A program made the position numbers and the translations under genes. Source: an uncultured Gammaproteobacteria bacterium (lineage in GTDB: Bacteria; Patescibacteriota; Patescibacteriia; Magasanikbacterales; GWA2-37-8). From it: DNA of 64,000 bases. The stretch covers positions 22,869 to 86,868 of the forward strand of contig CAYUHX010000002.1 in assembly GCA_964444705.1 (NCBI GenBank). The letters are read 5' to 3'. Each line of letters starts with the position of its first letter. The stretch's first letter is position 1. The notes beneath the pieces are model-generated. The model had not been told where the DNA came from, did no database searches, and saw nothing but the letters and a program-made list of their open reading frames with translations. Of this stretch, positions 2,567-33,060 are shown one piece after another.

Positions 2567-2649
2567 GGAGGATCGCTCACGCTTCAGACCTCGGTTTTTT
2601 AGCCAAAGTCTCAAGTGTGAGCGAGCGATCGGTGGGGGGTGGCTCAGGT

Positions 2650-3156
2650 TCACCGTGAGATCGTGAAGTTCACGGTGAAAGGGTCGTCCCGTTTTGCTGC
2701 CTCACCCAGGTGGAAGAGGAGGTTTAAGAAGTTTTTGCGGTTATCTGGTATTTGTTGATACCAGACCAGGAATTTTTGGACGCTGTAGACATCCAGCCCA
2801 CTAGGGAAGAAAATGGTAAAGACCACGTTCGTGCCGTCCCGGAAGCGGACGGTGAATGTACTGCCATCTTCCAGGCGGAAGATGGGGTTCCACCAATAGC
2901 GTCCAGGGGGAATCGCCCAGACGATGTTGTAAGAAAGCTGCCACCAGCTTTCTCCCGGCTGGACGACCTGGTGGTTTTTGACCGCCCGATGCACGCTGTA
3001 GGCGACTAGCACCACGGCGGCAGTGCCCCACCAGGTGATGAGGCCAGAGATCGTGAGCAGGAACAGCCCAAGACCGCCGAGCACCAGGGCCGGCAGGAGA
3101 CGGTTTTTTGGTGCCTTTGACCAGATCGTAAAATCGTGGGGAGGGAGAAACGTCAT
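2650..3156 (-). CDS. GC-rich membrane-anchored hypothetical protein (likely horizontally acquired)
   Basis: 168 aa with N-terminal TM helices. Local GC is about 55-58% versus about 40% in the flanks. GAGGTG lies 7 nt upstream of the ATG. Confidence 0.45.
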   Translation of the reverse strand: MTFLPPHDFTIWSKAPKNRLLPALVLGGLGLFLLTISGLITWWGTAAVVLVAYSVHRAVKNHQVVQPGESWWQLSYNIVWAIPPGRYWWNPIFRLEDGSTFTVRFRDGTNVVFTIFFPSGLDVYSVQKFLVWYQQIPDNRKNFLNLLFHLGEAAKRDDPFTVNFTISR

Positions 3157-3222
3157 TGGAGCACCTCGCTTTCAGGGGTATCTTTACCATGAGGTGGGGG
3201 AGAGAAGCAAGGATGTAAGAAT

Positions 3223-3867
3223 CTAGGCTAAATTAAGAAAGGAGGTTTTGGTCGCAACAAACTCAAGTAAAGCCGCCACTGTGCGCCCTTCGCTGATTTC
3301 TCCATGGGCGCATTTATCTAAAATTTCAGTAAAGGTAAACCACTTGCCTTGGTGAATGTCTTCACCTTCTTCATGAAGTTTATTCGTGGCGCTGCCGCAT
3401 ATCTCTTCGGCCAGGATGTAGTACAAATCCCATTCGACGGTGGCACCACATTCTTTTTTGGCAAAAAAGCGTAGTTGTGTGGCTTCAAGCTGGGCTTCTT
3501 CGCGCAATTCTTTGGCCGCTGCCGCCAGGATCATAGCTTCGGGCACCGCTTGGGTAAGGTAGGGGCGATAGTCATTAAAACTATCGACGACTTTTCCTCC
3601 GGGTAAGCGCCAGTCCAAAACGTTATTTCTTTCTAACCGAGCCTCTTGTTGCAAATAAATAGTTTTATTTTGTACCGCAATAATTCGGGTGCCAGGTGCG
3701 CGGACAAATTTTTCAAACACTTTGGCTATATAACCCTTACCTTCATCAACCAGCACTGGAAATTGTACAATTGCCCCAATGCGCCCTTCGCTTAAAATGG
3801 TCGGCGCGCCATTAGGGATAATTTTTGGTTCGTCAGGAGTGCGGATTCGAACAACATTCATTGTCAT
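3223..3867 (-). CDS. NUDIX-like hydrolase (degenerate Nudix box)
   Basis: LPGGKVV...KELREEAQLEA resembles the Nudix box (GX5EX7REUXEEXGU) with substitutions. Confidence 0.5.
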   Translation of the reverse strand: MTMNVVRIRTPDEPKIIPNGAPTILSEGRIGAIVQFPVLVDEGKGYIAKVFEKFVRAPGTRIIAVQNKTIYLQQEARLERNNVLDWRLPGGKVVDSFNDYRPYLTQAVPEAMILAAAAKELREEAQLEATQLRFFAKKECGATVEWDLYYILAEEICGSATNKLHEEGEDIHQGKWFTFTEILDKCAHGEISEGRTVAALLEFVATKTSFLNLA

Positions 3868-3965
3868 ATTTTTTAAAAAATAATTAAATCATTAGGCTGA
3901 GCAATATTTTGAAATTTTGTGCATAGAGCTATACCCGCGCACCGGTTAAATTACCACTTTCGTAT

Positions 3966-4610
3966 TTACTTGCCGCTGATTCGTTGCACTTCAAATTCTC
4001 CGTTGCTTCGTTTAATGAGACGATAAAAAGCATATACCGTTTGTCCTTCATGTGGAGCGGCCACGCCAAAAATAAAAGGTCGGTCGGATGATAAATTACC
4101 TCGGGTATAATATTCTTCAAAGACGGCCATTGCATCACCATCTGATGGTTGCCAAGGGCGCTGGTGTGCGTCGAGTTCGTGTGTTTCCACCGGATGAGTG
4201 TGCACATCGCCAATGAATTCTAAATTTCTATACTGTGGATACGCCCTTCGTAGTTCCTCGATTGAGCGCTGAATGGCGGCTAAGTTGGGTAATACGTATT
4301 CAACATGCTCGGTATACAGCGCTTCGCCCTGAGCATCTCGAGAGTCATGCGGGTCAACTTGCATTACTGCTTCGATAGTTACATGGACTGAATTTTTTTC
4401 TTGCGGCCGCACTTTTCCTAGAAGTATGGCGTATTTTTCTCGTCGTGCCCTTAGATCACTCGGCGTAACTTCTGGGAGATGCGCACCAACTTTTTCAGTA
4501 AAAGAAAAAGTGACTCGCAAATTTTCATCGAGAAAATCTATCTTTTGCGATGTGGCGTCTCTGGCTTCGGTTGCCGATCCCCTTCTATTAAAACGATCTC
4601 GTGGAGGCAT
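3966..4610 (-). CDS. hypothetical protein with HxH...SDGD metal-binding-like motif (possible JAB/MPN-like)
   Basis: GDVHTHPVETHE...QPSDGD resembles a JAMM-type motif but with non-canonical spacing. Confidence 0.4.
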   Translation of the reverse strand: MPPRDRFNRRGSATEARDATSQKIDFLDENLRVTFSFTEKVGAHLPEVTPSDLRARREKYAILLGKVRPQEKNSVHVTIEAVMQVDPHDSRDAQGEALYTEHVEYVLPNLAAIQRSIEELRRAYPQYRNLEFIGDVHTHPVETHELDAHQRPWQPSDGDAMAVFEEYYTRGNLSSDRPFIFGVAAPHEGQTVYAFYRLIKRSNGEFEVQRISGK

Positions 4611-4613
4611 AAG

Positions 4614-5159
4614 TTAAAAAGTACAACCAGGTTTGGCGGCAGTTGAAAGCAGCATTTTAAAAATTGTGTCGAATAGCTCGTTCGTGCCCGAAGCTAAGAT
4701 TATTTTTTTCTTTCCGGCATCAGATGCTATCTCAATAAATAAACTGGCCCGGTCGGGGTTGGGCAAATGTGAGCCAATGATATCAGGTAAACTCCAAAAA
4801 GTCGGCCGACCGAAATAGCCATCAAGAGCGATCAGTTGCTCCATAGTAATTTTTTCATCTTTTTTAATACACGAGCTGGGGTAATCGGAAATAATTTTTC
4901 CGTTTTCGTTTTCAGTATTCGGTGTAACGCCCGGACTCAGAAGAGTAATAGTATAAGGTTTGATGTTGCCACCCATTCGGCCGAAAGAAACTTTACTAAA
5001 ACCAGAATACGCCCCCGCCGGATTTGGGTCAGCGGCGTTTGGTGTAGAGGTGGTAGTGCGAGGGGGTTGGTCGTTTAGAACTGAATTGGTTGCAGGAGTG
5101 TTACTACAGCCAACTCCGAGGAGTGAAATCAAGGGAATTAAAAATAGAAAATTTTTCAT
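4614..5159 (-). CDS. lipoprotein, hypothetical
   Basis: Signal peptide MKNFLFLIPLISLLGVGCS with lipobox LGVGC. The mature part is S/T/P/N-rich. Probably co-transcribed with 3966..4610. Confidence 0.55.
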   Translation of the reverse strand: MKNFLFLIPLISLLGVGCSNTPATNSVLNDQPPRTTTSTPNAADPNPAGAYSGFSKVSFGRMGGNIKPYTITLLSPGVTPNTENENGKIISDYPSSCIKKDEKITMEQLIALDGYFGRPTFWSLPDIIGSHLPNPDRASLFIEIASDAGKKKIILASGTNELFDTIFKMLLSTAAKPGCTF

Positions 5160-5240
5160 ATACTTTGTTAATTAGAGAATGATGTGAGTATAGCAGTATG
5201 CCTAAATTAGTTCGAGTTTTTTGCTGGAAAAAAATAAAAA

Positions 5241-5261
5241 AGCCTGGAACAGGCTTTTTTT
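5241..5261 (-). terminator. Rho-independent terminator 3' of tRNA-Gly (bidirectional)
   Basis: agcctg-gaa-caggct, flanked by A7 upstream and T7 downstream. Confidence 0.55.
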
Positions 5262-5262
5262 G

Positions 5263-5334
5263 AGCGGGTGAGGGGAGTCGAACCCCTGTCACCAGTTTGG
5301 AAAACTGGGATAATAGCCGTTATATGACACCCGC
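5263..5334 (-). tRNA. tRNA-Gly (anticodon UCC)
   Basis: Reverse complement folds as a cloverleaf. Acceptor GCGGGTG/CACCCGC; D-loop with GG; anticodon stem CCAGT/ACTGG with loop TTTCCAA giving UCC; T-arm AGGGG-TTCGACT-CCCCT; discriminator U. CCA is not encoded. Confidence 0.75.
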
Positions 5335-5512
5335 AGTGAGTGAAAAGAAAAAGATTTTTCTTTTCCGAACGAAGGGCGGTATATACCTTAGTATATGACA
5401 CCCGTAACAAGTGAAGGCACTTTAAAAAAGTGCTGTTTCTTTAAAGTGATTTTAAGTATACTATACGAAAAAGAAATGTCAATAATTTCTTTAAAAGTAA
5501 CCTTCAAATGGT

Positions 5513-5833
5513 ATGTGGCAGGAGTATTCTTCATATTTTACACCTTTAAACGCGCTTTTGGCCTATCTCGTGGGGATAAATTTTGTAGCCTTTTTGGCAT
5601 ATGGATTTGATAAATGGGCGGCACGGGCTGGTTGGTGGCGAGTGCGGGAGCGAACGTTGTTGTTGTGCGCCCTTTTGGGTGGCAGTCTTGGGGCAGCGCT
5701 CGGGATGAATTATTTTCGTCACAAAACAAAAAAAGAGTCATTTTTTCTTTGGGTACTTCTCATTATAGTATTTCAGGTAGCCATTTTTGGGTATCTATTT
5801 TTTCGGTTTTTTCTTTCGGAGCAAAGCACTTGA
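5513..5833 (+). CDS. DUF1294-family small membrane protein
   Basis: FDKWAARAGWWRVRERTLLLCALLGGSLGAALGMNYFRHKTKK matches the DUF1294 signature (DK.A....WR.PE..L....GG..GA..G...FRHKT.K). Confidence 0.6.
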   Translation: MWQEYSSYFTPLNALLAYLVGINFVAFLAYGFDKWAARAGWWRVRERTLLLCALLGGSLGAALGMNYFRHKTKKESFFLWVLLIIVFQVAIFGYLFFRFFLSEQST

Positions 5834-5864
5834 CGCTGTTTTCAAACCTGGTAAAATATTTTTC

Positions 5865-5888
5865 ATATTTTACTCTAGAGTAAAATAT
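5865..5888. promoter_or_regulatory. perfect 24-bp palindrome ATATTTTACTCT|AGAGTAAAATAT (candidate operator)
   Basis: Exact 12+12 inverted repeat centred on CTAG, 33 nt upstream of the acidic micro-ORF. Confidence 0.4.
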
Positions 5889-5920
5889 ACACAGTATTTA
5901 CTTACATAACCTTCCCCTAT

Positions 5921-6076
5921 ATGGCACTAGATTTTGCCTTGGAAGAAGACGTCGACTTAGACGGCGAAGACGAAGAAGAAGTGGATGAAGACGAAGAAGA
6001 TGATGATATGGACGAAGAGGATGAAGCTGGTGCCGGAGATTATACCGACGGCGATGACGATGATGATGACGAATAG
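5921..6076 (+). CDS. hyper-acidic 51-aa micro-protein (MALDFALEEDVDLDGEDEEEVDEDEEDDDMDEEDEAGAGDYTDGDDDDDDE)
   Basis: ATG-initiated ORF ending in TAG, followed by an intrinsic terminator. It is absent from the ORF track (<60 aa). The antisense 66-aa H/R/L-rich frame is judged spurious. Confidence 0.35.
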   Translation: MALDFALEEDVDLDGEDEEEVDEDEEDDDMDEEDEAGAGDYTDGDDDDDDE

Positions 6077-6089
6077 CGAAGAGTGGAAA

Positions 6090-6112
6090 ATCCCCCAAAA
6101 GGGGATTTTTTG
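6090..6112 (+). terminator. Rho-independent terminator
   Basis: atcccc-caaaa-ggggat followed by TTTTTT, immediately 3' of the acidic micro-ORF. Confidence 0.5.
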
Positions 6113-6150
6113 TTGAGTAAAGCAGTTTTCTTCAACCACGCTGTGCTACC

Positions 6151-6179
6151 CTTGACAATAGTGTTAAGGTGTGATTTAA
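6151..6179 (+). promoter_or_regulatory. sigma70-like promoter (TTGACA-17-TTTAAT)
   Basis: TTGACA, 17-nt spacer, TTTAAT, upstream of the GC-rich lipoprotein gene. GGAGGA SD lies before ATG 6350. Confidence 0.4.
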
Positions 6180-6349
6180 TACCGCGTCGTATGGTTTGAT
6201 ATGAATAGTTGATGGTTCTTTAAAATACTTAAAAGTGTGTGGTGAAGCGAAGAAAGCGCTTGCCCCAGCTGACAAAGGCAGAAATAGTTTGTGTCTTGTT
6301 TAGCTGGAGGCAAAGGCCTCGCAAGCGTTTTCAACCCTGGAGGATCGTC

Positions 6350-6865
6350 ATGAAGCGCAACACGTGTCTGTTCCCCGGTTTCTTCGCCATTGCGGCCGCC
6401 ATCGGCTGCGGCAGTGCCCCTCCTACCGACCAGAACTTCAGCATCCCGGCGCCGGCGGAGTGCGACCAGCGGCAGCTCGAGGTGCGGGGTGACCGCAAGG
6501 TGACTAAGATCGAGTTCCCCGTGCCGAACGCAGGCTCGTACTACGTCGTGCAGAACGGCTACTCCGTCCGGTCCCCCTTCCCGGACGGGTACTACCCCGG
6601 CGTGGATGTGGTCAAGGACAGCTGCGGCAAGCCGGCCGTGAGCATCGACACTAGCGGCGCCTCGGTCTGGGCGAACCCGGGGCAGAAGGTGGGCGCCTGC
6701 CCCAAGGGCGGCGCCCAGCCGAACGGTGGGGCCCAGTGCTACAACTTCGAGGTCGGGCAGGGTGGCGTCATCACGCCGTACCTGGCGCCGCCCACGGACG
6801 AGCAGATCCAGGCGGAGCAGGCGATGGTCGCGGAGATCGCGGCCGAGCAGGCCGCCCAGGAGTAG
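6350..6865 (+). CDS. GC-rich secreted lipoprotein, hypothetical (likely horizontally acquired)
   Basis: MKRNTCLFPGFFAIAAAIGCGS has signal peptide plus lipobox. About 65% GC in an about 40% GC context. GGAGGA SD 7 nt upstream. The track start at 6239 is judged upstream read-through. Confidence 0.55.
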   Translation: MKRNTCLFPGFFAIAAAIGCGSAPPTDQNFSIPAPAECDQRQLEVRGDRKVTKIEFPVPNAGSYYVVQNGYSVRSPFPDGYYPGVDVVKDSCGKPAVSIDTSGASVWANPGQKVGACPKGGAQPNGGAQCYNFEVGQGGVITPYLAPPTDEQIQAEQAMVAEIAAEQAAQE

Positions 6866-7051
6866 CCACTTCGGCAACTCCGCGGCAGCCCCGATCGCTC
6901 TACACCTCCGACTCCACCTGCCCACCGTCAGCGCTAACCAGCGCGTGCGGTGGGCCTCGACTGATCTCGCCTCCGTATGTATTTGTTCACTTGAGTGGAG
7001 AAATGCATACGCGAGATCAGTTTGAGTGAAGTGTGGTTGGGAAAATAAAAA

Positions 7052-7080
7052 ATCCCTCTTATCAAGTCGATAAGAGGGAT
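7052..7080. terminator. bidirectional Rho-independent terminator
   Basis: atccctcttatc-aagtc-gataagagggat flanked by A6 and T5. Lies between the convergent lipoprotein (+) and VKOR (-) genes. Confidence 0.6.
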
Positions 7081-7111
7081 TTTTAGTTGTTTCAAATTTT
7101 GTGTTGCGGAG

Positions 7112-7579
7112 TTATAGCGAAGGAAATAATTTTCGTTTTAGTCGAGAAAGCCACGATTCATTTTTTCGCTCAAGCAAATACCACATTCCCAAGCCAAAGA
7201 GCGTGGTTGACGTGGCGGCCGAGAGTAAACAATATTGGCAAAAGCTGTGAAGAATAAATGCTTGCAGAAATAAAAACCACAGTGAAGCGAGAAGTCCGGC
7301 GCTAGTGAACCAGGCAAGGTGTTCGAGAATTTTTTCTCGGGCGGTATCAAAATAAAAAAGCGCTCCCACCACAATGCCGAGATAATACAGCGCCCCAAGG
7401 AGCGCGACCGGTATTCCTGCCGCAGTGGCGTAGGGGCTCGTGAGTACACGTTCACAACCTTGCACCACGGAGCAAGGAGGGATGGTTCCTTGAAAATGTT
7501 CAACGGTTAAATAGGTAGCATCGAGAAAGCCCAAAAAACCTACAAAGAGAAAAAGACCAGCAAATTTTTTTGAAGTCAT
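7112..7579 (-). CDS. vitamin K epoxide reductase (VKOR) family protein
   Basis: Multi-TM protein with loop Cys pair CSVVQGC and TM CXXC (CQYC), typical of bacterial VKOR. Immediately followed by DsbA. Confidence 0.7.
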   Translation of the reverse strand: MTSKKFAGLFLFVGFLGFLDATYLTVEHFQGTIPPCSVVQGCERVLTSPYATAAGIPVALLGALYYLGIVVGALFYFDTAREKILEHLAWFTSAGLLASLWFLFLQAFILHSFCQYCLLSAATSTTLFGLGMWYLLERKNESWLSRLKRKLFPSL

Positions 7580-7592
7580 AGCAGGTGTCTGG

Positions 7593-8318
7593 TTATTTGG
7601 TTGAAGAAGGTGTTGTTGCTAGAGAGGAATTGTCGATCGTTTGTTTAATCGCATTTCTAAATTCATCAAAATTTTGGGGCTTTAGACGCACACCATTTAA
7701 AAAGAAAGAAGGTGTGGCATCAACGCCTGCAGCGTTACCACTTTTTTCATCTCGTTCAATATGGGCGGTGAGGTTGCCAGAAGAAAGATCTTTTTGAAAT
7801 TGTTCCACGTTGAGAGGAATTTCGCTGGCCAAACGAATAAATATTTTTTGAGCACCTTCATCGGTTTCGCCTTCCCAACTATTTTGGCTGGCAAATAATT
7901 TGTCATGCATTTCCCAAAATTTTCCTTGGCGTCCTGCAGCTTCAGCAGCCAGTGCTGCCGCTTGGCTATGCGCATGTTGTTGTAGGGGGAAGTGTCGGTA
8001 GACAAAACGCACACGCGTACCAAATTCCGCCATTACACGCACAATGAGAGGTTCAAAGGCGGCACAGGCGGGGCATTGAAAGTCGCTGTATTCAACCACC
8101 GTGACGCGTGACAGCACATTGCCACGTACCCAATCGGTTGATTCAACGGGAGCAAGATTGGCAGGGGTAGTGCTCATTATTGGGGTTTGTCCGCGTTCAC
8201 CAAGTTTGGCAATTCCCCAGATTGACAGAACAATCAATAGTAATACGCCGCCCCACAGCCCAATTCGTTTCCAAGGGATATTTTTTGCAGACGATTGTTT
8301 TTGTGTAGTGGAGGGCAT
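7593..8318 (-). CDS. DsbA-family thiol:disulfide oxidoreductase (membrane-anchored)
   Basis: QCPACAAF (CPAC) thioredoxin-fold active site, HFPL motif and an N-terminal TM anchor. Start chosen at MPSTTQ. The track ORF extends to 8453. Confidence 0.75.
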   Translation of the reverse strand: MPSTTQKQSSAKNIPWKRIGLWGGVLLLIVLSIWGIAKLGERGQTPIMSTTPANLAPVESTDWVRGNVLSRVTVVEYSDFQCPACAAFEPLIVRVMAEFGTRVRFVYRHFPLQQHAHSQAAALAAEAAGRQGKFWEMHDKLFASQNSWEGETDEGAQKIFIRLASEIPLNVEQFQKDLSSGNLTAHIERDEKSGNAAGVDATPSFFLNGVRLKPQNFDEFRNAIKQTIDNSSLATTPSSTK

Positions 8319-8468
8319 AGAAAAGATTAAAAACAAAGTATGTGTAGAAATAGTATCTCTCGAAATTGAAATTAGTTCAATGTGCGCCTTGATTGCTTGG
8401 GCGGTGGCAGACCCTTCTTTTTTTAGAAAGAAAGGCCTGCGAGGCAGAAACAATCGTTGGAGTAGTGG

Positions 8469-9452
8469 TTATTTTTTGAGTTCAGCGTCAATTGCTTGCT
8501 GAAAATCAGAGAGCGGTCGTGCACCGACGACGAGTTTGCCATTTACAAATGTGGCCGGAGTTCCTTGGACACCTTTCGCTACACCTTCTTGGTAATCTTG
8601 TTGCACTTTAGCAGTGAATTTTCCAGAATCAAGACAGGTGTTAAATGTGGTGGCGTTGAGACCAATTTCTTTCGCCCATTGTTTTAAGGATTCAAAGCTT
8701 AGTGCCTGTTGATTTTCAAACACCTTGTCGTGGAATTCCCAGAATTTGTTTTGCTCACCAGCACATTCAGATGCCTCAGCTGCTTTTATCGCATAGGGAT
8801 GAATTTCGCTTAAAGGAAAATGTTTGTAGACGATACGAACTTTGTTGCCATAGGTGGCGGCAATTTGTTTGAGCGTGGGGTAGTGGCGGCTGCAGTAAGG
8901 ACATTGAAAATCAGAAAACTCAACCAAGGTTACAGGCGCATTAAAGCTGCCGAGGATATGATCTTCTTTGGTAATGGTGAACGATTGTACTGGTGGTGGT
9001 GTGTTCGCGTCAGCACCGCTTGGTTGTGGTTGAGCTTGTGCCTGCCCGTTAGGAATAGCGATGGTGTTTGTGCTTGGTCGACGCAGGAGTACTACCGCGA
9101 GAGTGATGTTGATGATCAGCGAGAGTATGCTGAACGCACTCAAAAAACCAACGAACATAAGAGCGGCGGGTGATAAGCTCCAGATGCCATTGTGGGTTGG
9201 GGTAGAGGAAGGGGTTGACATAGGTGAAGGGGTTGGGTCAATTTTTAATGTTTCGTAGGGGCCCGTTTTATGCACGGTGGTTAGAATTACATTTTCGTTC
9301 ACGATGGTTTCATCGTAAGCAGCGGCACCTTTTTTTGATTCAAAATTTACTTTGGCATTGAGCACGCCAGGAATTTGTTTAAGCATTTTCTCAAGCTGCG
9401 CTGCGCCGGCGAGATCAGCAAGGCCAATGATTTGAAACGTGACTTTTTGCAT
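8469..9452 (-). CDS. DsbA-like oxidoreductase with N-terminal cysteine-less HMA-like domain and TM anchor
   Basis: C-terminal FQCPYCSRHYP active site with KHFPL. The N-terminus MQKVTFQIIGLADLAGAAQLEKMLKQIPGV has an HMA-like fold lacking the CxxC. A central TM helix is present. Confidence 0.65.
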   Translation of the reverse strand: MQKVTFQIIGLADLAGAAQLEKMLKQIPGVLNAKVNFESKKGAAAYDETIVNENVILTTVHKTGPYETLKIDPTPSPMSTPSSTPTHNGIWSLSPAALMFVGFLSAFSILSLIINITLAVVLLRRPSTNTIAIPNGQAQAQPQPSGADANTPPPVQSFTITKEDHILGSFNAPVTLVEFSDFQCPYCSRHYPTLKQIAATYGNKVRIVYKHFPLSEIHPYAIKAAEASECAGEQNKFWEFHDKVFENQQALSFESLKQWAKEIGLNATTFNTCLDSGKFTAKVQQDYQEGVAKGVQGTPATFVNGKLVVGARPLSDFQQAIDAELKK

Positions 9453-9483
9453 AGGCAAAAATAAATAAAAAAATAAATTAATA

Positions 9484-11058
9484 TTATAAGGCTTCAATCA
9501 CTCCGTTATACATTCCCATCGAGCAACTAAATTTGTATTTTCCTGGTCGCGTTACTTCAAATTCCTTCACACTCGTTTCTCCCTGGCGTAAAATTATTTT
9601 ATCGTTAAACAGCTCCCTGGCGATAATGACATTTTCACAGCCGCCGGCTCCTTGATCGGTAATTTCCCAGCGCACTGGTTTTCCAGTACGGATTTTAAAG
9701 TAATTAGGAGAATAGGCTCTCGGTATGGCGTTCATTTTGAGAAGTTGTTTTCCGTTGATGAGTGGAGCAAAGGCAGTGCCATCGTCTGCACGAGTGTGTA
9801 CACCAAAAGATAGATCGTTTAGGCTTGGTAATCCGAGTAGATTAAATTCAGAATTGATGGTGTAAAGAGAAAAAAAGAGTACCACAAATCCGGCAACTAA
9901 AGAAAAATAGCGTGAGAAGCGCGGAGTGGAAGCAAAAGAAATACTGCCAAGACCAATTGTAAGCAGAGTGGGGAGGGTGCCTAGGGCAAAGAAAAACATG
10001 ATGAGCCCACCGTGCCAGGCTGCGCCAGAGATAAGTGCAATTCCTTGAACAATGAGAGTGAAGCCACACGGAAGAAAAAAAGTGGCTGCGCCCAAAAAGA
10101 ATGGCATCAATCGACCAGCAAAATTTTTTTCGTCAGTAAGTTGTGTGGTAAATTTTTTTGGCAAATGAAGTTGTATTTTTTGAAAAAAAGGAATTTCTAA
10201 CATTTGCAACGCAAGCACGATCATTAAGAGTGAAACAAAAATAGTGAGAATAGAAGTGGTGGTAAGAGAAGGTGAAATGAGATTTCCTACTGTTCCAAGA
10301 ATCATTCCACCAAGACCATAAGCGGTGAGACGCCCCGCATTAAAAAGTAGGTGAGGTTGCATCCGGCGAAGACTTGAGACCTCGTTACCGTAGGTGGAAG
10401 ACCACTTTTTTGACAAAGAAAGTACGAGCCCGCCTACCAGAGCCGCGCAGGTAGAAAAACTTGCGATAAGACCAAAGATGGTAAAAGAAAAAAGTGAAGA
10501 GGTGTTCGTGAGGGAAAGTCGTGATGCCAATCCTTGAGTGTTTAACCACAAGAAACTAATAAGAAAGATAAATGCGATACAAAAAGCGCGCCACCATTCT
10601 TTGTCTAAAAAAGGCTGGGTCTTTTTTTGAGAGAGAGAAAAATGATAACCCTCATTTTTAAAAAGAGTATCAAGGGAACTGATTTCTGGTGCCGTGCCCG
10701 AGTGAGTGATGGTAAGCGTGCCGTGTGTAGTTGAGGCCTCAACGAGATGCACTCCCGGCAGAGTTGAGATTTTTTTCTCAAGTATGATTTCACAGGCGGC
10801 GCAGTGGAGGCCGGTGACAAAGTACAGCTGTTGTGCAGTAGCTGCAATCTCCTCTTTTTGGAAAGAAATGTTTTTTTCTCGAAGAAGGGTGAGAACTGAA
10901 TTCTTGGCGGTTTCAGAAGCAAAAGAAACAAAACAGCGATTTTTTTTGGGATTAAAACGTATTTCTTTCACTTCTCCAAGAACAGAGAGTTCGGTTTCAA
11001 GAGAAGTGCTGACCTCGACGGAAAGAGGGGGTTCAAAATGCAAAATAATGTGTGTCAT
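9484..11058 (-). CDS. HMA domain - CcdA/DsbD-like (or TauE-like) transmembrane - C-terminal cupredoxin-like domain protein
   Basis: N-terminal GLHCAACEIIL (HMA MxCxxC). About 8 TM helices with conserved Cys in TM segments (FSTCAAL, FLPCGF). C-terminal beta-rich region ends ...KYKFSCSMGMYNGVIEAL. Confidence 0.6.
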   Translation of the reverse strand: MTHIILHFEPPLSVEVSTSLETELSVLGEVKEIRFNPKKNRCFVSFASETAKNSVLTLLREKNISFQKEEIAATAQQLYFVTGLHCAACEIILEKKISTLPGVHLVEASTTHGTLTITHSGTAPEISSLDTLFKNEGYHFSLSQKKTQPFLDKEWWRAFCIAFIFLISFLWLNTQGLASRLSLTNTSSLFSFTIFGLIASFSTCAALVGGLVLSLSKKWSSTYGNEVSSLRRMQPHLLFNAGRLTAYGLGGMILGTVGNLISPSLTTTSILTIFVSLLMIVLALQMLEIPFFQKIQLHLPKKFTTQLTDEKNFAGRLMPFFLGAATFFLPCGFTLIVQGIALISGAAWHGGLIMFFFALGTLPTLLTIGLGSISFASTPRFSRYFSLVAGFVVLFFSLYTINSEFNLLGLPSLNDLSFGVHTRADDGTAFAPLINGKQLLKMNAIPRAYSPNYFKIRTGKPVRWEITDQGAGGCENVIIARELFNDKIILRQGETSVKEFEVTRPGKYKFSCSMGMYNGVIEAL

Positions 11059-11076
11059 AGCAGTGTGAGAATCTTT

Positions 11077-12045
11077 TTAGTGCGAACGGTTTGAAGAACA
11101 AGTTGTTACTTTATCCCATGATGAAAACAAAAGAGGAGTGCTGAGAGTTTGATTAAAGGTGCATTGATGCACTGTCGAAGAAGGTGTTTGGCGGGCAAAA
11201 ACGAGGGGAATAAAAGCTTGGGCAAAAAGTAAAATGCTTGCTATGACCGCAAAAATTGCATACCCAATTTGTCGGAAAGAATGGGGCGTAGCTTTGGTTG
11301 AATTAGTGAGGCGGTCGATGCGAGCTTCGAGCGTCGAAAAAGCAGCCGTGGTGCTCGTAGAAAAAAATGACGTACCTCCAGTTGAAATAATTTTGAGCAG
11401 TGCGCTTCCTAGGGTGTGGGGGGAAACCTCTTTGAGGGCGCCATTGTCGGCCGCAAATTCATGAGCAAGTTCCATTTTTTTAAGAAGGAGTTCGCGTGCA
11501 GGGATATACCACCAGAGTGCTAAGAGGCTGCGCAGTAAAAGTGTGCGGAGGGGATGTTTTTCTTCTTGATGAATTTTTTCGTGCGTGAGAATAGCGGTGA
11601 TTTCTGAAGGGGTGCAGTGTTGAAGTATTCCTTTTGAGAGATAAATGGTAGGTCGAAAAAAACCAATCGTGCAGGCAAAAGAACGTTCGTCATTGGGTAC
11701 ATACACTTGAATATTTGGGGAGGTAAAAGATGCGCTAAAGCTATGGGCGCGAAGTCGTCGTTCAAGACGCGCAGAACGCCAGATTTCAATGAATAAAGAA
11801 TATACTGCGAATATAAGACCGCTTCCAATGAGAAAGAGAGTAGCTAAGAGAGCGCGGTGTCCAGAGCTGATTAAAAAAGAGGTAAAAGAACTAAAGATTC
11901 CTTGGCAGCAAGAAGCAAGAAAATTTTGCCACTCAGTGCGGAGGTAGGTGTTGCCAAAAAAAAGCGCTTTTGCGCCGAGTGCAATTGTGGTTACCAGAAA
12001 AAAAATAAGAATTTTTTGTAGAGAGATGCGTTTGAAAAAAATCAT
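11077..12045 (-). CDS. BlaR1-type M56 family membrane metallopeptidase (sensor-transducer, no penicillin-binding domain)
   Basis: TM helices plus HEKIH (HExxH) zinc motif in M56 context. Directly downstream of a BlaI-family repressor. Confidence 0.65.
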   Translation of the reverse strand: MIFFKRISLQKILIFFLVTTIALGAKALFFGNTYLRTEWQNFLASCCQGIFSSFTSFLISSGHRALLATLFLIGSGLIFAVYSLFIEIWRSARLERRLRAHSFSASFTSPNIQVYVPNDERSFACTIGFFRPTIYLSKGILQHCTPSEITAILTHEKIHQEEKHPLRTLLLRSLLALWWYIPARELLLKKMELAHEFAADNGALKEVSPHTLGSALLKIISTGGTSFFSTSTTAAFSTLEARIDRLTNSTKATPHSFRQIGYAIFAVIASILLFAQAFIPLVFARQTPSSTVHQCTFNQTLSTPLLFSSWDKVTTCSSNRSH

Positions 12046-12046
12046 A

Positions 12047-12475
12047 CTAGTGTGGGTCGAGAGTATCTACAAATTGTTTTAATTTTTTTACTGTTTCTTC
12101 GTCAAGCTCATTTTTCATATCGGCAAAATGAGCGACACTGAAAAGTGATGGATCATGGATGAGAGCACGTAGAAAATGGTGTGCAATCATTTTAGTAAAG
12201 TCTTTGTACGATATTGTGGCGTGGTATAAAAATACACCTTCTTTTTTTTCTTTAGCCAAAAGTTTTTTCTCCACTAGACGGTTCATGACGGTCATGGTGG
12301 CGTTGGTTGAGAGTGGTTTGTAGGCGTGGTGCAAGATGGTGCGCACACCTTGAACTCCTAAACCTTCTTTGTTTTCCCAAATGGCGTGCATGATTTTGGC
12401 TTCCAGTTCACCGAGTACTTTGCCTACTCCTTCTGCGCGGGGGTGGAAAAGCGAAGGAATGAATGAAGTCGCCAT
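12047..12475 (-). CDS. BlaI/MecI/CopY-family transcriptional repressor
   Basis: Winged-helix penicillinase-repressor pattern (MHAIWE...TILHHAYKPLSTNATMTVMNRLVEKKLL). No C-terminal Cys cluster, so BlaI-like rather than metal-binding CopY. Confidence 0.7.
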   Translation of the reverse strand: MATSFIPSLFHPRAEGVGKVLGELEAKIMHAIWENKEGLGVQGVRTILHHAYKPLSTNATMTVMNRLVEKKLLAKEKKEGVFLYHATISYKDFTKMIAHHFLRALIHDPSLFSVAHFADMKNELDEETVKKLKQFVDTLDPH

Positions 12476-12501
12476 AGGGAAAAATAAAAAACAACACCCT
12501 T

Positions 12502-12530: not shown

Positions 12531-12590
12531 GATGACTCGTGTGGATAAGAAAATATTCTTTTAACAGACACGGGTCGGTGTGTAAGAAAA

Positions 12591-13397: not shown

Positions 13398-13430
13398 AGG
13401 TAGTGTGTGGTTACAATAGGCTGAAGAACA

Positions 13431-13454: not shown

Positions 13455-13467
13455 TAAGAGTGGTCTT

Positions 13468-17668: not shown

Positions 17669-17899
17669 AGAATATTTAAAAGTTATCGTAGTATAGCATG
17701 AATAGACAGCAGATTGTAGATAAACAAAAACAGACTTTACACAAAAGTCTGTTTAGAAGAGCGTGGAGCACGCTCGTGGTAACGTATCTCATCTCATTCC
17801 GCTACATCTGAATTTAAGCTTTAAATTTAGATGTAGGTGGCGGAACGAGGAAGTGGGCTCGAGTGGGGAGAAGCCACCTCGGAGCCGGCGCGGTGGCTC

Positions 17900-19129
17900 C
17901 TAGAACTCGGCGGCCGTGCGGCCGATTCCTCGGCAAAGGGGGTCGCGCTGGTCGGTGAATTCATTTATGTTCACCGCCGGGTCCCCGATTTGCGCCCTGA
18001 ACGCGGCCTCGTCGATCAGCAGGTCGCGCGAGCTACACGGTGATACCTTCACCGAGTTGGCATAAGGGTTGTCACCATGGTCCAGAAACAACCCTTCGGT
18101 GGGGAAGCTGATGAGTTCGTGTTCGCACACCCAGATGGGCTGGGTGGGGATGTTGATGCTCTTCAGCAGAGCCACCATAAAGCCCACACTTCCGTGACAG
18201 CCCGCGGTCCAGTGTTGGACCCCTGCGTCTGGATTGTTGGTATCAATAGTACCTTCAATGATTGCGCCCAGCGGTGCGAATCCTGCATACCCCCATACTG
18301 CTAGATGGTTGGTGTATGAGGATGGCCCATAGTAATGCGTCATCATGTGCCGCATCCAATCAATCAGGTTCACAATTGTGCTTAGGCGATTTTCACCGAC
18401 TATTCCCTGGCTCGCAAGCCAGTTGTACAGCGCTCGTGGGGGCGCGTAGGGTGTTTGTGCGCGGTTATCTTTTGTGAAATAAGGTGTGCCTATTTCACTC
18501 GTCCCAACCGTGTAGACTACGGGAGAATATTCGAGCCGCCACCCAATGGCCGCGCTGTCAAACAGTTCTCGGAGTTGTTCGTCGTTGTACCCGGTGATGC
18601 TCCACCCAAGGGTAGTGGAGGTCTCGAGCGCGAGCGAGAAGCCCACTTGGGCAACATAAAGTCGCCACATGTAGGTTTCTTCGAACTCCTTCGCAACTTT
18701 GCAGTTTGGGCAACGATCGCCGTTATTATTGTTCGACGGCCTATCGGTCAGACCATCGGCGATGAAGCCTACAGGCGTTGCTCCACCCCGTAGCCAGTCG
18801 TAGGCGGTTTTGTAGGCGGTTTCGAGGTCCGCCTTTTGGACAGTCGACCATTTGGTGTAGTTTTGTTTTTCGCTATCTGTCGGCGGTGTGTAGGCGTTAA
18901 GAGACGCCTGAGCGTGCTGCCACTTGATGGCCGTTGCCACCTGGGGGTGGTTGGCTAACCACTGCGCCGCGGTTGGTGGTTTGCTTGGAATGATTACTAC
19001 CGGTGGGTCATCCGTGGGTCGTTCGCCCATGTCTGCGACCGATGGTGGCCGCTCTTGATTTGTGGGGCTTGGCCCGCAAGCGGTGGTGCAGAAAAGCCAG
19101 AAAAGAATCAGACCAACGAGACGTTGCAT
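17900..19129 (-). CDS. GC-rich secreted lipoprotein, hypothetical (likely horizontally acquired)
   Basis: MQRLVGLILFWLFCTTACG signal/lipobox. About 60% GC. No recognisable catalytic motif. Confidence 0.5.
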   Translation of the reverse strand: MQRLVGLILFWLFCTTACGPSPTNQERPPSVADMGERPTDDPPVVIIPSKPPTAAQWLANHPQVATAIKWQHAQASLNAYTPPTDSEKQNYTKWSTVQKADLETAYKTAYDWLRGGATPVGFIADGLTDRPSNNNNGDRCPNCKVAKEFEETYMWRLYVAQVGFSLALETSTTLGWSITGYNDEQLRELFDSAAIGWRLEYSPVVYTVGTSEIGTPYFTKDNRAQTPYAPPRALYNWLASQGIVGENRLSTIVNLIDWMRHMMTHYYGPSSYTNHLAVWGYAGFAPLGAIIEGTIDTNNPDAGVQHWTAGCHGSVGFMVALLKSINIPTQPIWVCEHELISFPTEGLFLDHGDNPYANSVKVSPCSSRDLLIDEAAFRAQIGDPAVNINEFTDQRDPLCRGIGRTAAEF

Positions 19130-19345
19130 GGTTTTGATCTCCAAATTTCGGGCTCATGGCCCGGGTAGGGGTGATTTGGGGTGAAGTAATAATGCACCGG
19201 CATCTTAATTGTAAGATAATAATGGTGCGTTATCACGGATAAAAAGAGCCAAGATTTGACACTAGCACAAAAATGAAAAATGTCAAGTCTAAGAAGGTGT
19301 TTTTTATCTTAATTAAGCAAAATAGTGCGTATTTAAAAAAATAAA

Positions 19346-19376
19346 AAACCCGAGAATATCGGGTTTAGCTTTTTTC
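19346..19376 (-). terminator. orphan Rho-independent terminator (stronger on minus strand)
   Basis: aaacccga-gaata-tcgggttt with a T-run on the + side (agctttttt) and T6AT7 on the minus side. No annotated gene ends here. Confidence 0.45.
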
Positions 19377-19759
19377 ACCATTAAGCTGCGGGAAGATCTG
19401 CATGTTAAGCGCGAGTCGGATTCCAAAAAACGGCTCCTTTAAAACATGAGACACATTTTAAGGGAAAAAAGATTGTTTTAGGATTCTAATTCGATTGAAA
19501 CATCAAATCTACCGCAACTTATTAGTGAAAAATATGAAAAAGGTTTGGTCATTGTAAGCTTCACCCTGCCGACTGTCAAGTGCGCTTAAAAAACGAAAAA
19601 ATAACCAATAAATCGTATAAACTCGATTTCAACCTTGGGTATTTTTAAATCACTTGTTGATAAGTAAAGTAGGGCTGCAAATGCGAGTGGTGTTATTTTG
19701 GCATAATCTAGTTAAAAATAAGAATAAAATTGACAAACTAGCACTCGCTTGTTCTTCAC

Positions 19760-19788
19760 TTGACACGCGGAAAATATCCGGCTAAAAT
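19760..19788 (+). promoter_or_regulatory. sigma70-like promoter for rpoBC (TTGACA-17-TAAAAT)
   Basis: TTGACAcgcggaaaatatccggcTAAAAT lies about 240 nt upstream of the rpoB start. A second TTGACA sits 30 nt further upstream. Confidence 0.45.
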
Positions 19789-20027
19789 GAATCCACTTTA
19801 GAGATGTGCAGAGGATTGGCATGGCAAGACAAAAAAGAGATCGATGTACTTTTTCGTCTTTTCATTCCAAGTCCCTCTCTTGCCTTATAAAGAGGTGTTT
19901 AATTATTTGAAACCCTTATTTAATGTGGTTAGAGAGTGATTATTTCCACCAAAAACCCTTTTAGGGTTTCATTTTGTTTTCTTTAAAAAAATTAGTTTCA
20001 ATCATAATTTCATCCTTCTTTAAAACT

Positions 20028-23447: not shown

Positions 23448-23483
23448 TCTTATTCTTTTGCAATCTTTGTAACCTTACCTCTT

Positions 23484-27377: not shown

Positions 27378-27392
27378 AATTTTAGCTGCTAA

Positions 27393-27425
27393 AACCATCT
27401 GTCTTCATGGCAGGTGGTTTTTTTA
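27393..27425 (+). terminator. Rho-independent terminator after rpoC
   Basis: aaccatctg-tcttcatgg-caggtggtt (one G-U pair) followed by T7. Confidence 0.6.
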
Positions 27426-27469
27426 TTAGCTTGTTTTTTATATTTTTTTGGCGTAAAATAGGTTAAACT

Positions 27470-29242: not shown

Positions 29243-29253
29243 TTTATTATTCT

Positions 29254-29976: not shown

Positions 29977-30077
29977 ATTTCGTAAAAGAAAATGAGGTGT
30001 GTGTAAATGCTCAGTTGGTTTATTTTACGGAAAAGGATTCTGTTGTTCACGCTGAACAGTAATACTATATTGAATAT

Positions 30078-30656: not shown

Positions 30657-30659
30657 TTC

Positions 30660-31175: not shown

Positions 31176-31181
31176 TTCGCT

Positions 31182-31652
31182 ATGGCTGAAAGAAAAATAG
31201 TACTCGTAGTTCCCAATGTACGGAGTGGGCATAATGTTGGGGCGATGCTTCGCACTGCCGATGGTGCTGGTGTAGCTAAAGTCTATCTTACAGGGTACTC
31301 TCCGTGCCCGCCGCATCCGCAGGTTGATAAAGTGTCGCTTGGTGCTGAAAAATTTGTTCATTGGGAGCATTGCCATCAAACAGGGCCACTGCTTAAAAAA
31401 TTAAAAAAAGAGGGCTATACAATAGTTGCCTTGGAACAAACAAAGAACAGTGTTAGTATATATGAATGGAAACCAACTTTTCCTTTGGCCTTGGTGGTAG
31501 GAAATGAAAAAACGGGTGTGACAAAATCGTTGCGTTCGTTGTGTGATGTGATAGTTGATTTGCCTATGAGAGGAAAGAAAAATAGTTTAAATGTAAGTGT
31601 GGCCGCCGGTATCGCTTTATATCAACTGTCTTTTGCGCCATCTTTTTCGTGA
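31182..31652 (+). CDS. TrmH/SpoU-family (SPOUT) RNA 2'-O-methyltransferase
   Basis: LVVPNVRSGHNVGAMLRTADGAGV ... ALVVGNEKTGV ... SLNVSVAAGIALYQL are SpoU motifs 1-3. Confidence 0.7.
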   Translation: MAERKIVLVVPNVRSGHNVGAMLRTADGAGVAKVYLTGYSPCPPHPQVDKVSLGAEKFVHWEHCHQTGPLLKKLKKEGYTIVALEQTKNSVSIYEWKPTFPLALVVGNEKTGVTKSLRSLCDVIVDLPMRGKKNSLNVSVAAGIALYQLSFAPSFS

Positions 31653-32395
31653 ATTATTATTTTGAATCACGTATGCAGTCAACTATTGCGCTTTTTCGTC
31701 ACCTTTATAAAAACATTCCACCGCTTTTTCCTAAAGAGATGAGTGAGAAAATGGCTCATGCGCTTTCTCATTTAGAGAAAGATCAGACCGTCACACTCGA
31801 TGAAATTGAAGACACTATGATTGCTTTTGGGTACGAAGTATGGCCATGGAATCAAGCGTATAAAGAGTTTGTGGCTGCCGCAGAAACGCAAATTGGTGAA
31901 CACTCACTTTTGCCCAGGCTGTCGTTGCCGCTGCAAAAAAAATATCATGATTTTAAATCATTTGGTGGTTCACTTCGTGATTTGCATTCGGGTCGGCCGG
32001 CTGATTATTTTTCTCCAGAAGATCGAGTTGAGTTGTGTGAAGCATTGGTTGAAATGCAAATTGATTTGCGTCAGTATGCAAAGCAAGAAGTGTGTGGTGT
32101 GAGTAAACAAAAATATCTAAAACGTGTAGCAGAGTTTACCACGCTTTTGCAAGATATTAAAAAAAATTTAGATTCCATGCGCCAGCTTGCGGGCAAGGAA
32201 CAAGATCATCCTACACTCGCCGATGAAATTCGAGCACGCGTACGCGGTTTTGAACACGGGCTTTGTTTGCTTGGACCAGAGCTTGAATATCATGCGGTCT
32301 GCAACTCACTTGAATTTTTTCACGGCCGCAAACAAGAGATGAACAGAATGAAAGGAATTAACGAGCCGTTGCAGGTTGATTTTTATAATGAATAG
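31649..32395 (+). CDS. hypothetical protein
   Basis: 248-aa ORF overlapping the upstream stop by 4 nt (ATGA). No recognisable motif. Confidence 0.4.
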   Translation: MNYYFESRMQSTIALFRHLYKNIPPLFPKEMSEKMAHALSHLEKDQTVTLDEIEDTMIAFGYEVWPWNQAYKEFVAAAETQIGEHSLLPRLSLPLQKKYHDFKSFGGSLRDLHSGRPADYFSPEDRVELCEALVEMQIDLRQYAKQEVCGVSKQKYLKRVAEFTTLLQDIKKNLDSMRQLAGKEQDHPTLADEIRARVRGFEHGLCLLGPELEYHAVCNSLEFFHGRKQEMNRMKGINEPLQVDFYNE

Positions 32396-32491
32396 TCAGA
32401 AGTAAAAATATTCGTTTTAAAAAAATAAAAATAGGAGTTCTTTTCAAAATTAACCACCAAAGTTAGCTGGCACAAAAAAAGGAGAGTAATC

Positions 32492-32980
32492 ATGTTTCAA
32501 ACGATGCTGAGAGCGGACATTCTTCTTTTGGAAATCGAGGCTGAAGCTGATCCGCGGCGACGGAAGGCACGTGTGCTTTCGCAGCCTGAGGGTGCGGTGC
32601 AGCGCTTGGTCAACGCGCTCGCACCCGGGTCGTACAGTTGCCCACACAGGTTTCGCGGCACTCAGACAATCGCCTGCCTCAACGGCCGGCTCGCGGCGAT
32701 CCTATGGGACGCCGAGGGTGTTCAGGATGGTGTGGTAAAACTAGAAAAAGGTGATGTGCTGGATTTAATCGAGCCGGCGCCCTACCACGCGCTCGTGGCC
32801 TACGACGGCCCGGTGACGATCTTGGAGACGCTGACAGGTCCGTATCGGCTGGAAAACCGCGAGGATTTGCCTGGATTCCCTGTTGAGGTGGGAAAGCCCG
32901 GAGGCGCTTTTGACGAAGAAATTCGTCGGCAGGAAATGCTCAGGGTGTGGGTACAGAAAATCAAGGAATATTCTAGGTAA
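32492..32980 (+). CDS. GC-richer small cupin-like hypothetical protein (possibly WbuC-like)
   Basis: 162 aa with beta-rich composition. Strong SD AAAGGAGAG 6 nt upstream. Local GC about 58%. Confidence 0.4.
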   Translation: MFQTMLRADILLLEIEAEADPRRRKARVLSQPEGAVQRLVNALAPGSYSCPHRFRGTQTIACLNGRLAAILWDAEGVQDGVVKLEKGDVLDLIEPAPYHALVAYDGPVTILETLTGPYRLENREDLPGFPVEVGKPGGAFDEEIRRQEMLRVWVQKIKEYSR

Positions 32981-33060
32981 ACAGGAAGGTTTTTTAGTTC
33001 CTTCTAGTTCGCTAGGAAATTTCCTCTTACCGCGCATCGCGCACACGATCGCGGTCATAC

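Follow-up and report, generated by a model that had tools for sequence, protein, structure and literature searches.

Probable horizontal acquisition of GC-rich, lipoprotein-enriched gene modules in a low-GC Patescibacteria contig

A 64,000-nucleotide stretch of a metagenome-assembled contig (CAYUHX010000002.1, positions 22,869 to 86,868; hereafter the window) carries nine intact genes, spread over five loci, that are far richer in guanine plus cytosine (GC) than the DNA around them. We consider it likely that these nine genes, designated G1 to G4, I1, I2′, I4, I5 and I6, were gained by horizontal gene transfer (HGT) from several unrelated bacteria of roughly 55-70% GC. Several donors and several events are suggested because the genes fall into distinct classes of GC content at third codon positions (GC3) and occupy separate sites. 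Repeated acquisition from high-GC sources had been proposed in an initial annotation of the window, and this proposal is supported by the foreign composition of the genes, by two comparable sites that are empty or otherwise filled in relatives, by homologues of G3 and I1 that have native composition in other, mostly high-GC phyla, and by the GC3 classes themselves. Altogether, some 13% of the window is GC-rich DNA that we read as foreign.

The window has a GC content of 45.2% overall and of 42.8% once the GC-rich tracts are removed, where the initial annotation had put the background at about 40%. The four short segments that it singled out (2650-3190, 6240-7030, 17830-19144 and 32490-33060) are indeed GC-rich (55.5%, 64.3%, 56.6% and 56.0%, respectively). 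As maximal-scoring GC segments they score 63, 224, 131 and 80, and two parts of a larger island score 212 and 624, against a null maximum of 44 obtained from block-shuffled background. At the level of single genes, GC3 is bimodal: 50 background genes (those of at least 100 codons) lie at 0.385±0.044 with a maximum of 0.466, the nine GC-rich genes at 0.63-0.92. GC content at the three codon positions (GC1, GC2 and GC3) was used to pick out real open reading frames (ORFs) and to drop the chance antisense ORFs of high-GC DNA, and the GC-rich ORFs that were kept show coding-type periodicity. Three ORFs with the wrong codon-position GC were judged spurious, namely 6176-6925 (minus strand), 2801-3190 (minus strand) and 38539-39177 (plus strand), the last of which is longer than I2′. 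The I2′ gene itself had escaped the initial annotation and was revealed by its codon-position GC. The modules, together with two features that belong to the island, are as follows (aa, amino acids; TM, transmembrane).

G1: 2573-3200, minus strand; ORF 2650-3156, 168 aa, two TM helices and a beta-rich C-terminal part, GC3 0.71
G2: 6303-6975, plus strand; ORF 6350-6865, 171 aa, predicted lipoprotein (lipobox AIGC) with several cysteines, GC3 0.92
G3: 17836-19190, minus strand; ORF 17900-19129, 409 aa, predicted lipoprotein (lipobox TTAC), GC3 0.64
G4: 32492-32980, plus strand; 162 aa, WbuC-family cupin, no signal peptide, GC3 0.63
I1: 37304-38362, minus strand; ORF 37403-38362, 319 aa, predicted lipoprotein (lipobox LTAC) with a calcineurin-like metallophosphoesterase domain, GC3 0.71
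I2′: 38465-39075, minus strand; ORF 38551-39075, 174 aa, cysteine-rich predicted lipoprotein (lipobox TIAC), GC3 0.75
I3: 39256-40989, minus strand; 577 aa, host-like composition (GC 0.47, GC3 0.39), no family match
I4: 41121-42325, minus strand; ORF 41225-42325 (likely ATG at 42319), 366 aa, no signal peptide or TM helix, GC3 0.73
I5: 42498-43652, minus strand; ORF 42609-43652 (likely ATG at 43646), 347 aa, four to five TM helices, GC3 0.88
I6: 43871-44441, minus strand; ORF 43959-44441 (ATG with GGAGG upstream), 160 aa, no signal peptide or TM helix, no family, GC3 0.92
Sigma-70 consensus site: 44655-44683, minus strand; TTGACA-17-TGnTATAAT, matching at 12 of 12 positions, in the AT-rich spacer upstream of I6

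Three GC3 classes can be seen, at about 0.63 (G3 and G4), about 0.71-0.75 (G1, I1, I2′ and I4) and about 0.88-0.92 (G2, I5 and I6), and in the last of these GC1 and GC2, which reflect composition at the amino-acid level, are also shifted as expected for high-GC genomes. A GC-rich module consists of one ORF with a short 5′ part and a 3′ hairpin, embedded in AT-rich spacer: the GC-rich tract ends about 30-60 bp 5′ of the start codon and 30-90 bp 3′ of the stop, beyond which GC content is 0.2-0.35. What the initial annotation called the large island is in fact two GC-rich blocks parted by the native-GC gene I3, with inner spacers that fall to 20-35% GC and with all six genes on the minus strand. 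Modules sit at operon boundaries, either at convergent or divergent junctions or at the 3′ end of a co-oriented gene.

Shine-Dalgarno sites are visible for all nine genes, and the hairpin terminators described initially were found again at eight of the nine 3′ flanks, which fold far more stably than shuffled sequences (z -2.9 to -8.1); several of the hairpins finish in T-runs, like ordinary terminators. They lie at 2573-2624 and 2541-2566 (G1), around 6920-6955 within some 110 bp of GC-rich 3′ flank that is followed by a host-type terminator at 7048-7084 (G2), at 17802-17836 (G3), at 33057-33096 (a perfect 16-bp hairpin 3′ of G4), around 37304-37366 (I1, itself GC-rich), around 38465-38527 (I2′), at two places within 42498-42587 (I5) and around 43871-43916 (I6). 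The further claim that each gene has its own AT-rich promoter is weakly supported: the perfect consensus site 5′ of I6 speaks for it, but other promoter sites match at 9 of 12 positions or fewer and are not more numerous than in shuffled sequences.

Lipoproteins were called with a combined pattern and hydrophobicity scan for the lipobox [LVI][ASTVI][GAS]C after a signal peptide. By this measure the GC-rich set comprises four predicted lipoproteins (G2, G3, I1 and I2′), two multi-TM proteins (G1 and I5) and three soluble proteins with neither signal peptide nor TM helix (G4, I4 and I6). Predicted lipoproteins are clearly enriched relative to the background (4/9 versus 1/50; Fisher p=0.0013), whereas lipoproteins and membrane proteins taken as one class are not (6/9 versus 21/50; p=0.28). 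The products first assigned to the four short segments were confirmed (two TM helices in G1, lipoboxes in G2 and G3, a cupin in G4), but I4 and I6 depart from the assertion that every gene, those of the island included, encodes a protein with a signal peptide, lipobox or TM helix, or a cupin. To say that the insertions encode almost exclusively lipoproteins or membrane proteins was thus an overstatement, the enrichment being confined to the lipoprotein subclass. Despite this, there is a real surface-protein bias in the GC-rich set.

Insertion sites and likely sources

The backbone in which the modules are set encodes RpoB and RpoC, RecA, FtsK, RuvC, RuvA, IleS, a VKOR/DsbA/DsbD cluster, a BlaI/BlaR1-like pair and a pyrimidine biosynthesis cluster. 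Three metagenome contigs of 34-41% GC (L045, L049 and L051) have the same gene order, SpoU-ORF248-PfkB-two small TM genes-TrxR-Rpe-RpiB-IleS, at 40-68% aa identity, and proteins exactly matching those of L045 and L051 are annotated as 'Candidatus Magasanikbacteria bacterium' in NCBI and UniRef. Candidatus Magasanikbacteria belongs to the Parcubacteria group of Patescibacteria, also called the Candidate Phyla Radiation (CPR), and all host proteins looked up are singletons at 90% identity. Judged by these relationships, the host is a poorly sampled, low-GC (~43%) CPR bacterium related to Candidatus Magasanikbacteria.

Synteny with these contigs allowed the G4 and island sites to be compared among five very divergent genomes (39-47% protein distance). 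PfkB and ORF248 are 770 bp apart in the window, with G4 between them; in L049 they are separated by 121 bp of DNA with a GC content of 12%, and in L051 the gap is occupied by a native-GC HD-domain gene. RpiB and IleS, which flank the island, are 8.5 kb apart in the window but 0.78-0.86 kb apart in L045 and L049; in L051 the interval spans 2.7 kb, and its cargo is again of native GC. Because both sites are either empty or filled with other native-GC cargo in syntenic relatives, we regard them, on comparative grounds, as variable-cargo insertion hotspots in a conserved backbone.

Might the modules simply be chimeric joins, in which high-GC reads from the community were assembled or binned into a CPR contig? 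The contig was assembled from a metagenome, and in the protein collection most GC-rich genes stand alone as singletons, as one would expect of such an artefact, but it is nonetheless hard to credit. At least 12 junctions fall at gene borders with intact ORFs, Shine-Dalgarno sites and terminators, and a metagenome-assembled genome (MAG) from another project (L126, described below) has GC-rich genes of this kind at the corresponding locus. Moreover, both junctions of G4 recur at 100% identity over 1046 bp in an independent Logan assembly of SRR13287418, which argues against an assembler-specific chimera.

One pointer to a source comes from G3. An exhaustive HMMER search with a joined query of G1, G2, G3 and G4 gave 833 library matches with E≤1e-3; of the best 150, nearly all match G3, at 30-47% identity over full-length matches and up to 56% in short fragments. 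When one genome per GTDB species was scanned with a profile, 43 G3-family loci came up, the best of them in Gemmatimonadaceae (48%), Holophagaceae and Thermoanaerobaculia, with a Patescibacteria or CPR label on none of the 43. At all 43 loci the GC content of the gene follows that of its flanks (0.42-0.71); in the window, G3 stands at 0.56 against flanks of 0.44, and its value equals that of the best Gemmatimonadaceae match (0.566). The nearest fragments (54% and 50% identity) lie in native contigs of 58% and 68-70% GC, and the best full-length match lies in a 65% GC context beside polyhydroxyalkanoate (PHA) genes. In a neighbour-joining tree, G3 forms a long branch within a subfamily dominated by Gemmatimonadota and Acidobacteriota, and the relation of its GC12 (first and second codon positions) to its GC3 is within the noise of family members from a ~57-60% GC genome, with no clear decay by amelioration.

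For I1, homologues at 28-32% identity all lie in 67-68% GC contexts with a conserved neighbour gene, and one of them is labelled Myxococcales. The indicated donors are therefore Gemmatimonadota, Acidobacteriota and Myxococcota-like bacteria, not specifically an actinobacterial or proteobacterial host or neighbour, the examples first suggested, and the direction of transfer would be from such bacteria into the CPR lineage. Best matches to genes of low-GC lineages with host-like GC3, the outcome that would have spoken for a native origin, were not obtained. Taken gene by gene, phylogenetic incongruence is found for G3; the I1 outgroup is of high GC, yet the best I1 match is in a related CPR MAG; and G2 is an ORFan, recovering only itself from 5.8 billion clusters.

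Points against import and competing explanations

A number of observations weigh against acquisition by HGT and concern its mechanism, its donors and its timing. As to mechanism, none is apparent, since no integrase or transposase was detected in Pfam, NCBIfam and PADLOC scans of the window. The only tRNA gene in the window (Gly, 5262-5334) adjoins no module, direct repeats at the flanks stay at chance level, and the modules have no border k-mers or motif in common. As to donors, none was traced for G1, G2, I2′, I5 and I6; G2 is the ORFan, and the other four, for which no individual deep homology search was made, were negative in a tblastn search of plasmids and phages. Even for G3 the nearest relatives reach no more than 48-54% identity, and its branch is long, which suggests that its direct donor is unsampled.

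As to timing, the best homologue of I1 (46% identity) lies on L126 (GCA_964585245.1, CAZPCV010000036.1), a contig with the same backbone, in the same IleS-RpiB interval. There it is a metallophosphoesterase (Metallophos) lipoprotein gene with a GC3 of 0.67, accompanied by a GC-rich gene for a CHAT protein (GC3 0.83; 31.2 bits against the Pfam model), by two more lipoprotein ORFs and by a native-GC 497-aa gene that is unrelated to I3; the L126 backbone is about 40-49% GC. CHAT and Metallophos genes follow one another in the same order and orientation in L126 and in the window, where the CHAT-like protein is I4 (weak similarity, ~28% identity). Fourfold-degenerate sites at conserved residues are near saturation between the two, with 0.42 identical against 0.34 expected for I1 and 0.32-0.42 against 0.25-0.30 for the backbone, and both I1 copies nevertheless retain a GC content at such sites (GC4) of about 0.75. 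G4 presents a similar case: its sole close homologue found (P0094, 52% identity, positions 459-965 of L125, from Logan SRR13208893) is likewise a WbuC cupin gene of 62% GC in flanks of 25-47% GC, with a neighbourhood unlike that of G4 and a gene for an FAD-dependent oxidoreductase adjoining. L125 thus represents another organism with a GC-rich gene in an AT-rich setting. Under vertical inheritance of the I1, I4 and G4 pairs, most of the excess GC should have been lost through neutral amelioration; separate capture of each member would instead call for related donors and for one site to have been used repeatedly. Given the GC-rich positional homologues of I1 and, weakly, of I4 in so divergent a relative, not all of the acquisition events look recent. 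Two further observations were made on the L126 interval (3500-8700). An uncalled ORF at 4526-4918 (minus strand) encodes a cysteine-rich lipoprotein with a GC-rich mature part behind an AT-rich signal-peptide part, and GC-rich patches with no clear ORF lie at around 8200-8400.

One explanation for this persistence is that the genes are long-resident, lineage-specific accessory genes, anciently acquired by this CPR clade or having arisen within it, whose high GC content is actively maintained against AT-biased mutation, whether by selection on the expression, mRNA structure or codon choice of surface proteins or by recombination-linked GC-biased conversion at hotspots. It would account for the I1 and I4 pairs being GC-rich in the window and in L126 (GC3 0.71/0.67 and 0.73/0.83) despite near synonymous saturation, for the divergence of I1 (46-50% identity), which is in line with that of the backbone (50-68%), and for G4 and its L125 homologue both being GC-rich in AT-rich settings at ~50-52% identity with saturated synonymous sites. 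We think it unlikely, however. The outgroup homologues of G3 and I1 are found in other, mostly high-GC phyla with native composition; the shift extends to GC1 and GC2 in G2, I5 and I6; GC-richness reaches into the 3′ non-coding flanks; and the islands of the window and of L126 are not alike in content, which implies turnover. The five backbone genomes are moreover roughly equidistant (protein distance 0.39-0.47) and single genes disagree on how they group, so that the data do not single out the window and L126 as sister lineages. Finally, we know of no bacterial mechanism that yields a GC3 gap of 0.3-0.5 between neighbouring genes.

A variant of the import explanation, to which we give a similarly low probability, is that the hotspot was reloaded independently, the window and L126 lineages having separately captured CHAT and Metallophos genes from related high-GC donors, for example their own hosts. 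On this view, every GC-rich gene would be a recent arrival that has yet to ameliorate. Hotspot cargo differs in every genome compared, GC-rich genes unique to each genome point to ongoing gain, the identity of I4 to the L126 CHAT protein (~28%) is far under that of the backbone, and in a comparison of IleS the window and L126 do not fall together. Against this, the I1 copies are nearer to each other (46%) than to any high-GC homologue found (28-32%), the same gene order would have had to be recreated twice, and an adjacent CHAT-Metallophos pair was seen in no donor among the high-GC contexts of I1 homologues.

A broader proposal, which covers both keeping and reloading, is that GC-rich surface-protein genes are a stable, lineage-spanning feature, such that divergent Magasanikbacteria-like CPR bacteria keep or reload the same hotspot with lipoprotein, CHAT and phosphoesterase genes from high-GC hosts (Gemmatimonadota, Acidobacteriota or Myxococcota) and the genes stay un-ameliorated even at saturating divergence. 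This is speculative, and we put it only slightly above the two preceding explanations. Were it true, the foreign composition would serve as an inherent tracer for the hosts of this CPR lineage or, alternatively, would reveal a mechanism that shields particular genes from AT-biased mutation pressure. Either way, GC-rich homologues kept at one site in a divergent relative pose a small but real challenge to the idea of recent import followed by amelioration.

Several routes of mobilisation were considered for the modules. A phage or plasmid origin was rejected: tblastn with the GC-rich proteins other than G3 gave no match in phage records and, in plasmids, CHAT matches at the domain level only, and IMG/VR scans for I1 and I5 were negative. 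Site-specific integration or transposition was set aside on the grounds of the chance-level repeats and the distant tRNA gene, and a structured-RNA hotspot target on the grounds that Rfam found nothing in the gaps of the window or in four relatives. It is also very improbable that the modules are attC-bearing cassettes of an integron or the cargo of some other small mobile element. Each unit does consist of one ORF with a structured 3′ end of 60-90 bp, and the six island genes are all on one strand, but neither IntI nor another tyrosine recombinase was found in the window, and the RYYYAAC...GTTRRRY pattern occurs four times in the window and never near a module. The lack of common border k-mers, the chance-level direct repeats, the terminator-like T-runs of several hairpins and the results for phage and viral contigs and for plasmids argue in the same direction.

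Integrases, tRNA targets and direct repeats are frequent in genomic islands but are not obligatory for HGT, and we continue to favour import from high-GC bacteria. Foreign DNA would have been taken up by the CPR cell and inserted, probably by illegitimate or homology-facilitated recombination, at permissive intergenic sites; this mode of insertion is suggested because no mobility machinery is visible. In a streamlined genome the imports would then have been trimmed to a minimal expressed unit of ORF, Shine-Dalgarno site and 3′ hairpin or terminator. The acquired set, being enriched in lipoproteins, would mainly remodel the cell surface, and would also bring in a cupin, a CHAT-like protease and a multi-TM protein.

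Individual modules and their neighbours

G3 lies in the divergent ftsK/rpoB intergenic region. Its lipobox is followed by a conserved domain of ~360 aa in which Cys311, His337, His351 and Asp353 are invariant among 10 sequences and which carries the motifs HWTAGCHGSVGF, GHEL and LDHGDxPY; elsewhere in the family the domain often forms the C-terminal part of secreted proteins, which reach 1446 aa. An AlphaFold model (predicted local distance difference test, pLDDT, 73; predicted template modelling score, pTM, 0.78) gave no significant Foldseek match in the PDB, the best being a putative cysteine protease (3isr, E=0.87), and a PDB profile search gave nothing. The invariant Cys, His and Asp residues might fit the catalytic triad of a transglutaminase- or papain-like cysteine hydrolase. 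Because the family is large, has these invariant residues and has no Pfam or NCBIfam model, its members are candidate secreted enzymes of an uncharacterised kind, of interest in their own right. Between G3 and rpoB, the ~830 bp at 19145-19973 contain no long ORF; there is a bidirectional terminator-like hairpin at 19346-19366 and there are two promoter-like sites that match at 11 of 12 positions, at 19579-19551 (minus strand) and 19760-19788 (plus strand). Rfam found nothing in this region.

Within the island, I1 matches PF00149 over the full-length domain (48 bits; Pfam gathering cutoff 21.5). The N-terminal ~165 aa of I4 are CHAT- or caspase-like, with the motifs HFIGHG and NVCW. The score against the CHAT model PF12770 is 16.5 bits, below the cutoff of 24, tblastn matches to annotated CHAT proteins have E-values of 2e-6 to 7e-6, and the L126 CHAT protein, whose own score is above the cutoff, has the motifs HFxGHG and NxCW in common with I4. 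I5 gave two weak, independent sub-threshold matches to families of the SLATT type, NCBIfam SLATT_1 (E=0.0075) and Pfam DUF4231 (E=0.088). The genes I6, I5 and I4 stand in series behind the perfect sigma-70 consensus site (41225-44683, minus strand), which is a candidate promoter for all three. Together they could represent a small conflict or abortive-infection-type module; a PADLOC search for known defence systems gave no match in the window.

G4 is placed between ORF248 and a convergent pfkB-family kinase gene, and matches the WbuC-family cupin model TIGR04366 of NCBIfam at 59.8 bits (cutoff 42); a match to Pfam DUF6016 is weak. G1 has no Pfam, NCBIfam or PADLOC family, and among the top matches to the joined query it is represented only by itself, no individual search with G1 having been made. 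It sits 66 bp downstream of a co-oriented NUDIX gene and probably lacks a promoter of its own.

Two observations concern the surroundings of G2. Just upstream, at 5921-6076 (plus strand), a putative gene encodes an extremely acidic, Asp/Glu-rich peptide of 51 aa (MALDFALEEDVDLDGEDEEE...) and is followed by a clean terminator hairpin. On the other side, an adjoining run of envelope redox and metal genes at 7112-12475 (minus strand) encodes VKOR, two DsbA-like thioredoxins, of which one has an HMA domain, and an HMA-DsbD-cupredoxin fusion, followed by a BlaR1-like M56 peptidase and a BlaI-like repressor; all of it is of native GC. Further along the backbone, a de novo pyrimidine cluster of native GC (56057-63705, minus strand) encodes PyrB, PyrI, a PyrC-like amidohydrolase, a protein resembling dihydroorotate dehydrogenase, a phosphoribosyltransferase and orotidine monophosphate decarboxylase. 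CPR bacteria are usually described as being without nucleotide biosynthesis, which makes the cluster worthy of note. It includes a 248-aa gene (58615-59361, minus strand) with no Pfam match and a GC3 of 0.22, about 3.7 standard deviations below the background mean.

Relation to known systems

Most CPR bacteria are thought to live attached to other microbes, and in the majority of lineages the partner is not known. Foreign genes that encode surface lipoproteins and bear the composition of their donors are plausible leads to such contact partners and to the proteins involved in contact, and the Gemmatimonadota, Acidobacteriota and Myxococcota-like donors indicated here are testable partner candidates. 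Some 13% of foreign DNA is also a large share for a streamlined genome.

In Patescibacteria, HGT and genomic islands amounting to as much as 13% of genome length have been described, with donors that include other phyla (mSystems, 2025; PMC12455944). Most of the transfers detected in that study were between Patescibacteria, and a link to host-symbiont interaction was proposed (PMC12455944). The window resembles these islands in having individually transferred genes in a streamlined CPR genome and a similar share of foreign DNA. It differs in that such sources as can be traced lie among high-GC Gemmatimonadota, Acidobacteriota and Myxococcota-like bacteria, and in that the units are single-gene modules with a lipoprotein bias and with no mobile-element genes.

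Compositionally atypical 'alien' genes and their amelioration are the subject of a model that reportedly goes back to work by Lawrence and Ochman in 1997. As in that model, the genes of the window were spotted through GC3 and codon-position GC that fit another genome, and they are embedded among native genes. Alien genes in bacteria are usually AT-richer than their host, however, whilst the imports described here are much GC-richer. A single ancient transfer, moreover, does not predict the GC-rich homologues of I1, I4 and G4 that are found in low-GC contexts at saturated divergence.

Chromosomal integration hotspots between core genes are said to have been surveyed by Oliveira and colleagues (Nat Commun, 2017), and many such hotspots are without recognisable mobile-element genes. 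The rpiB/ileS and pfkB/ORF248 intervals are alike in holding different accessory cargo in each related genome, although our comparison is of five very divergent genomes and not of a species pangenome. Integron cassettes and the arrays known as CALIN (clusters of attC sites lacking integron integrases) likewise have short single-ORF units with a structured 3′ end, in line also with the co-orientation of the island genes; with no integrase, attC signature or common border sequence, the modules are not members of this family.

Both the detection of alien genes by composition and core-flanked hotspots are textbook matters, and the window is best seen as a clean, well-bounded instance of a known process, not as a new kind of system. 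What sets it apart is the combination of imports that are much GC-richer than their host, a bias towards lipoproteins and the persistence of GC-rich homologues at the corresponding site in L126.

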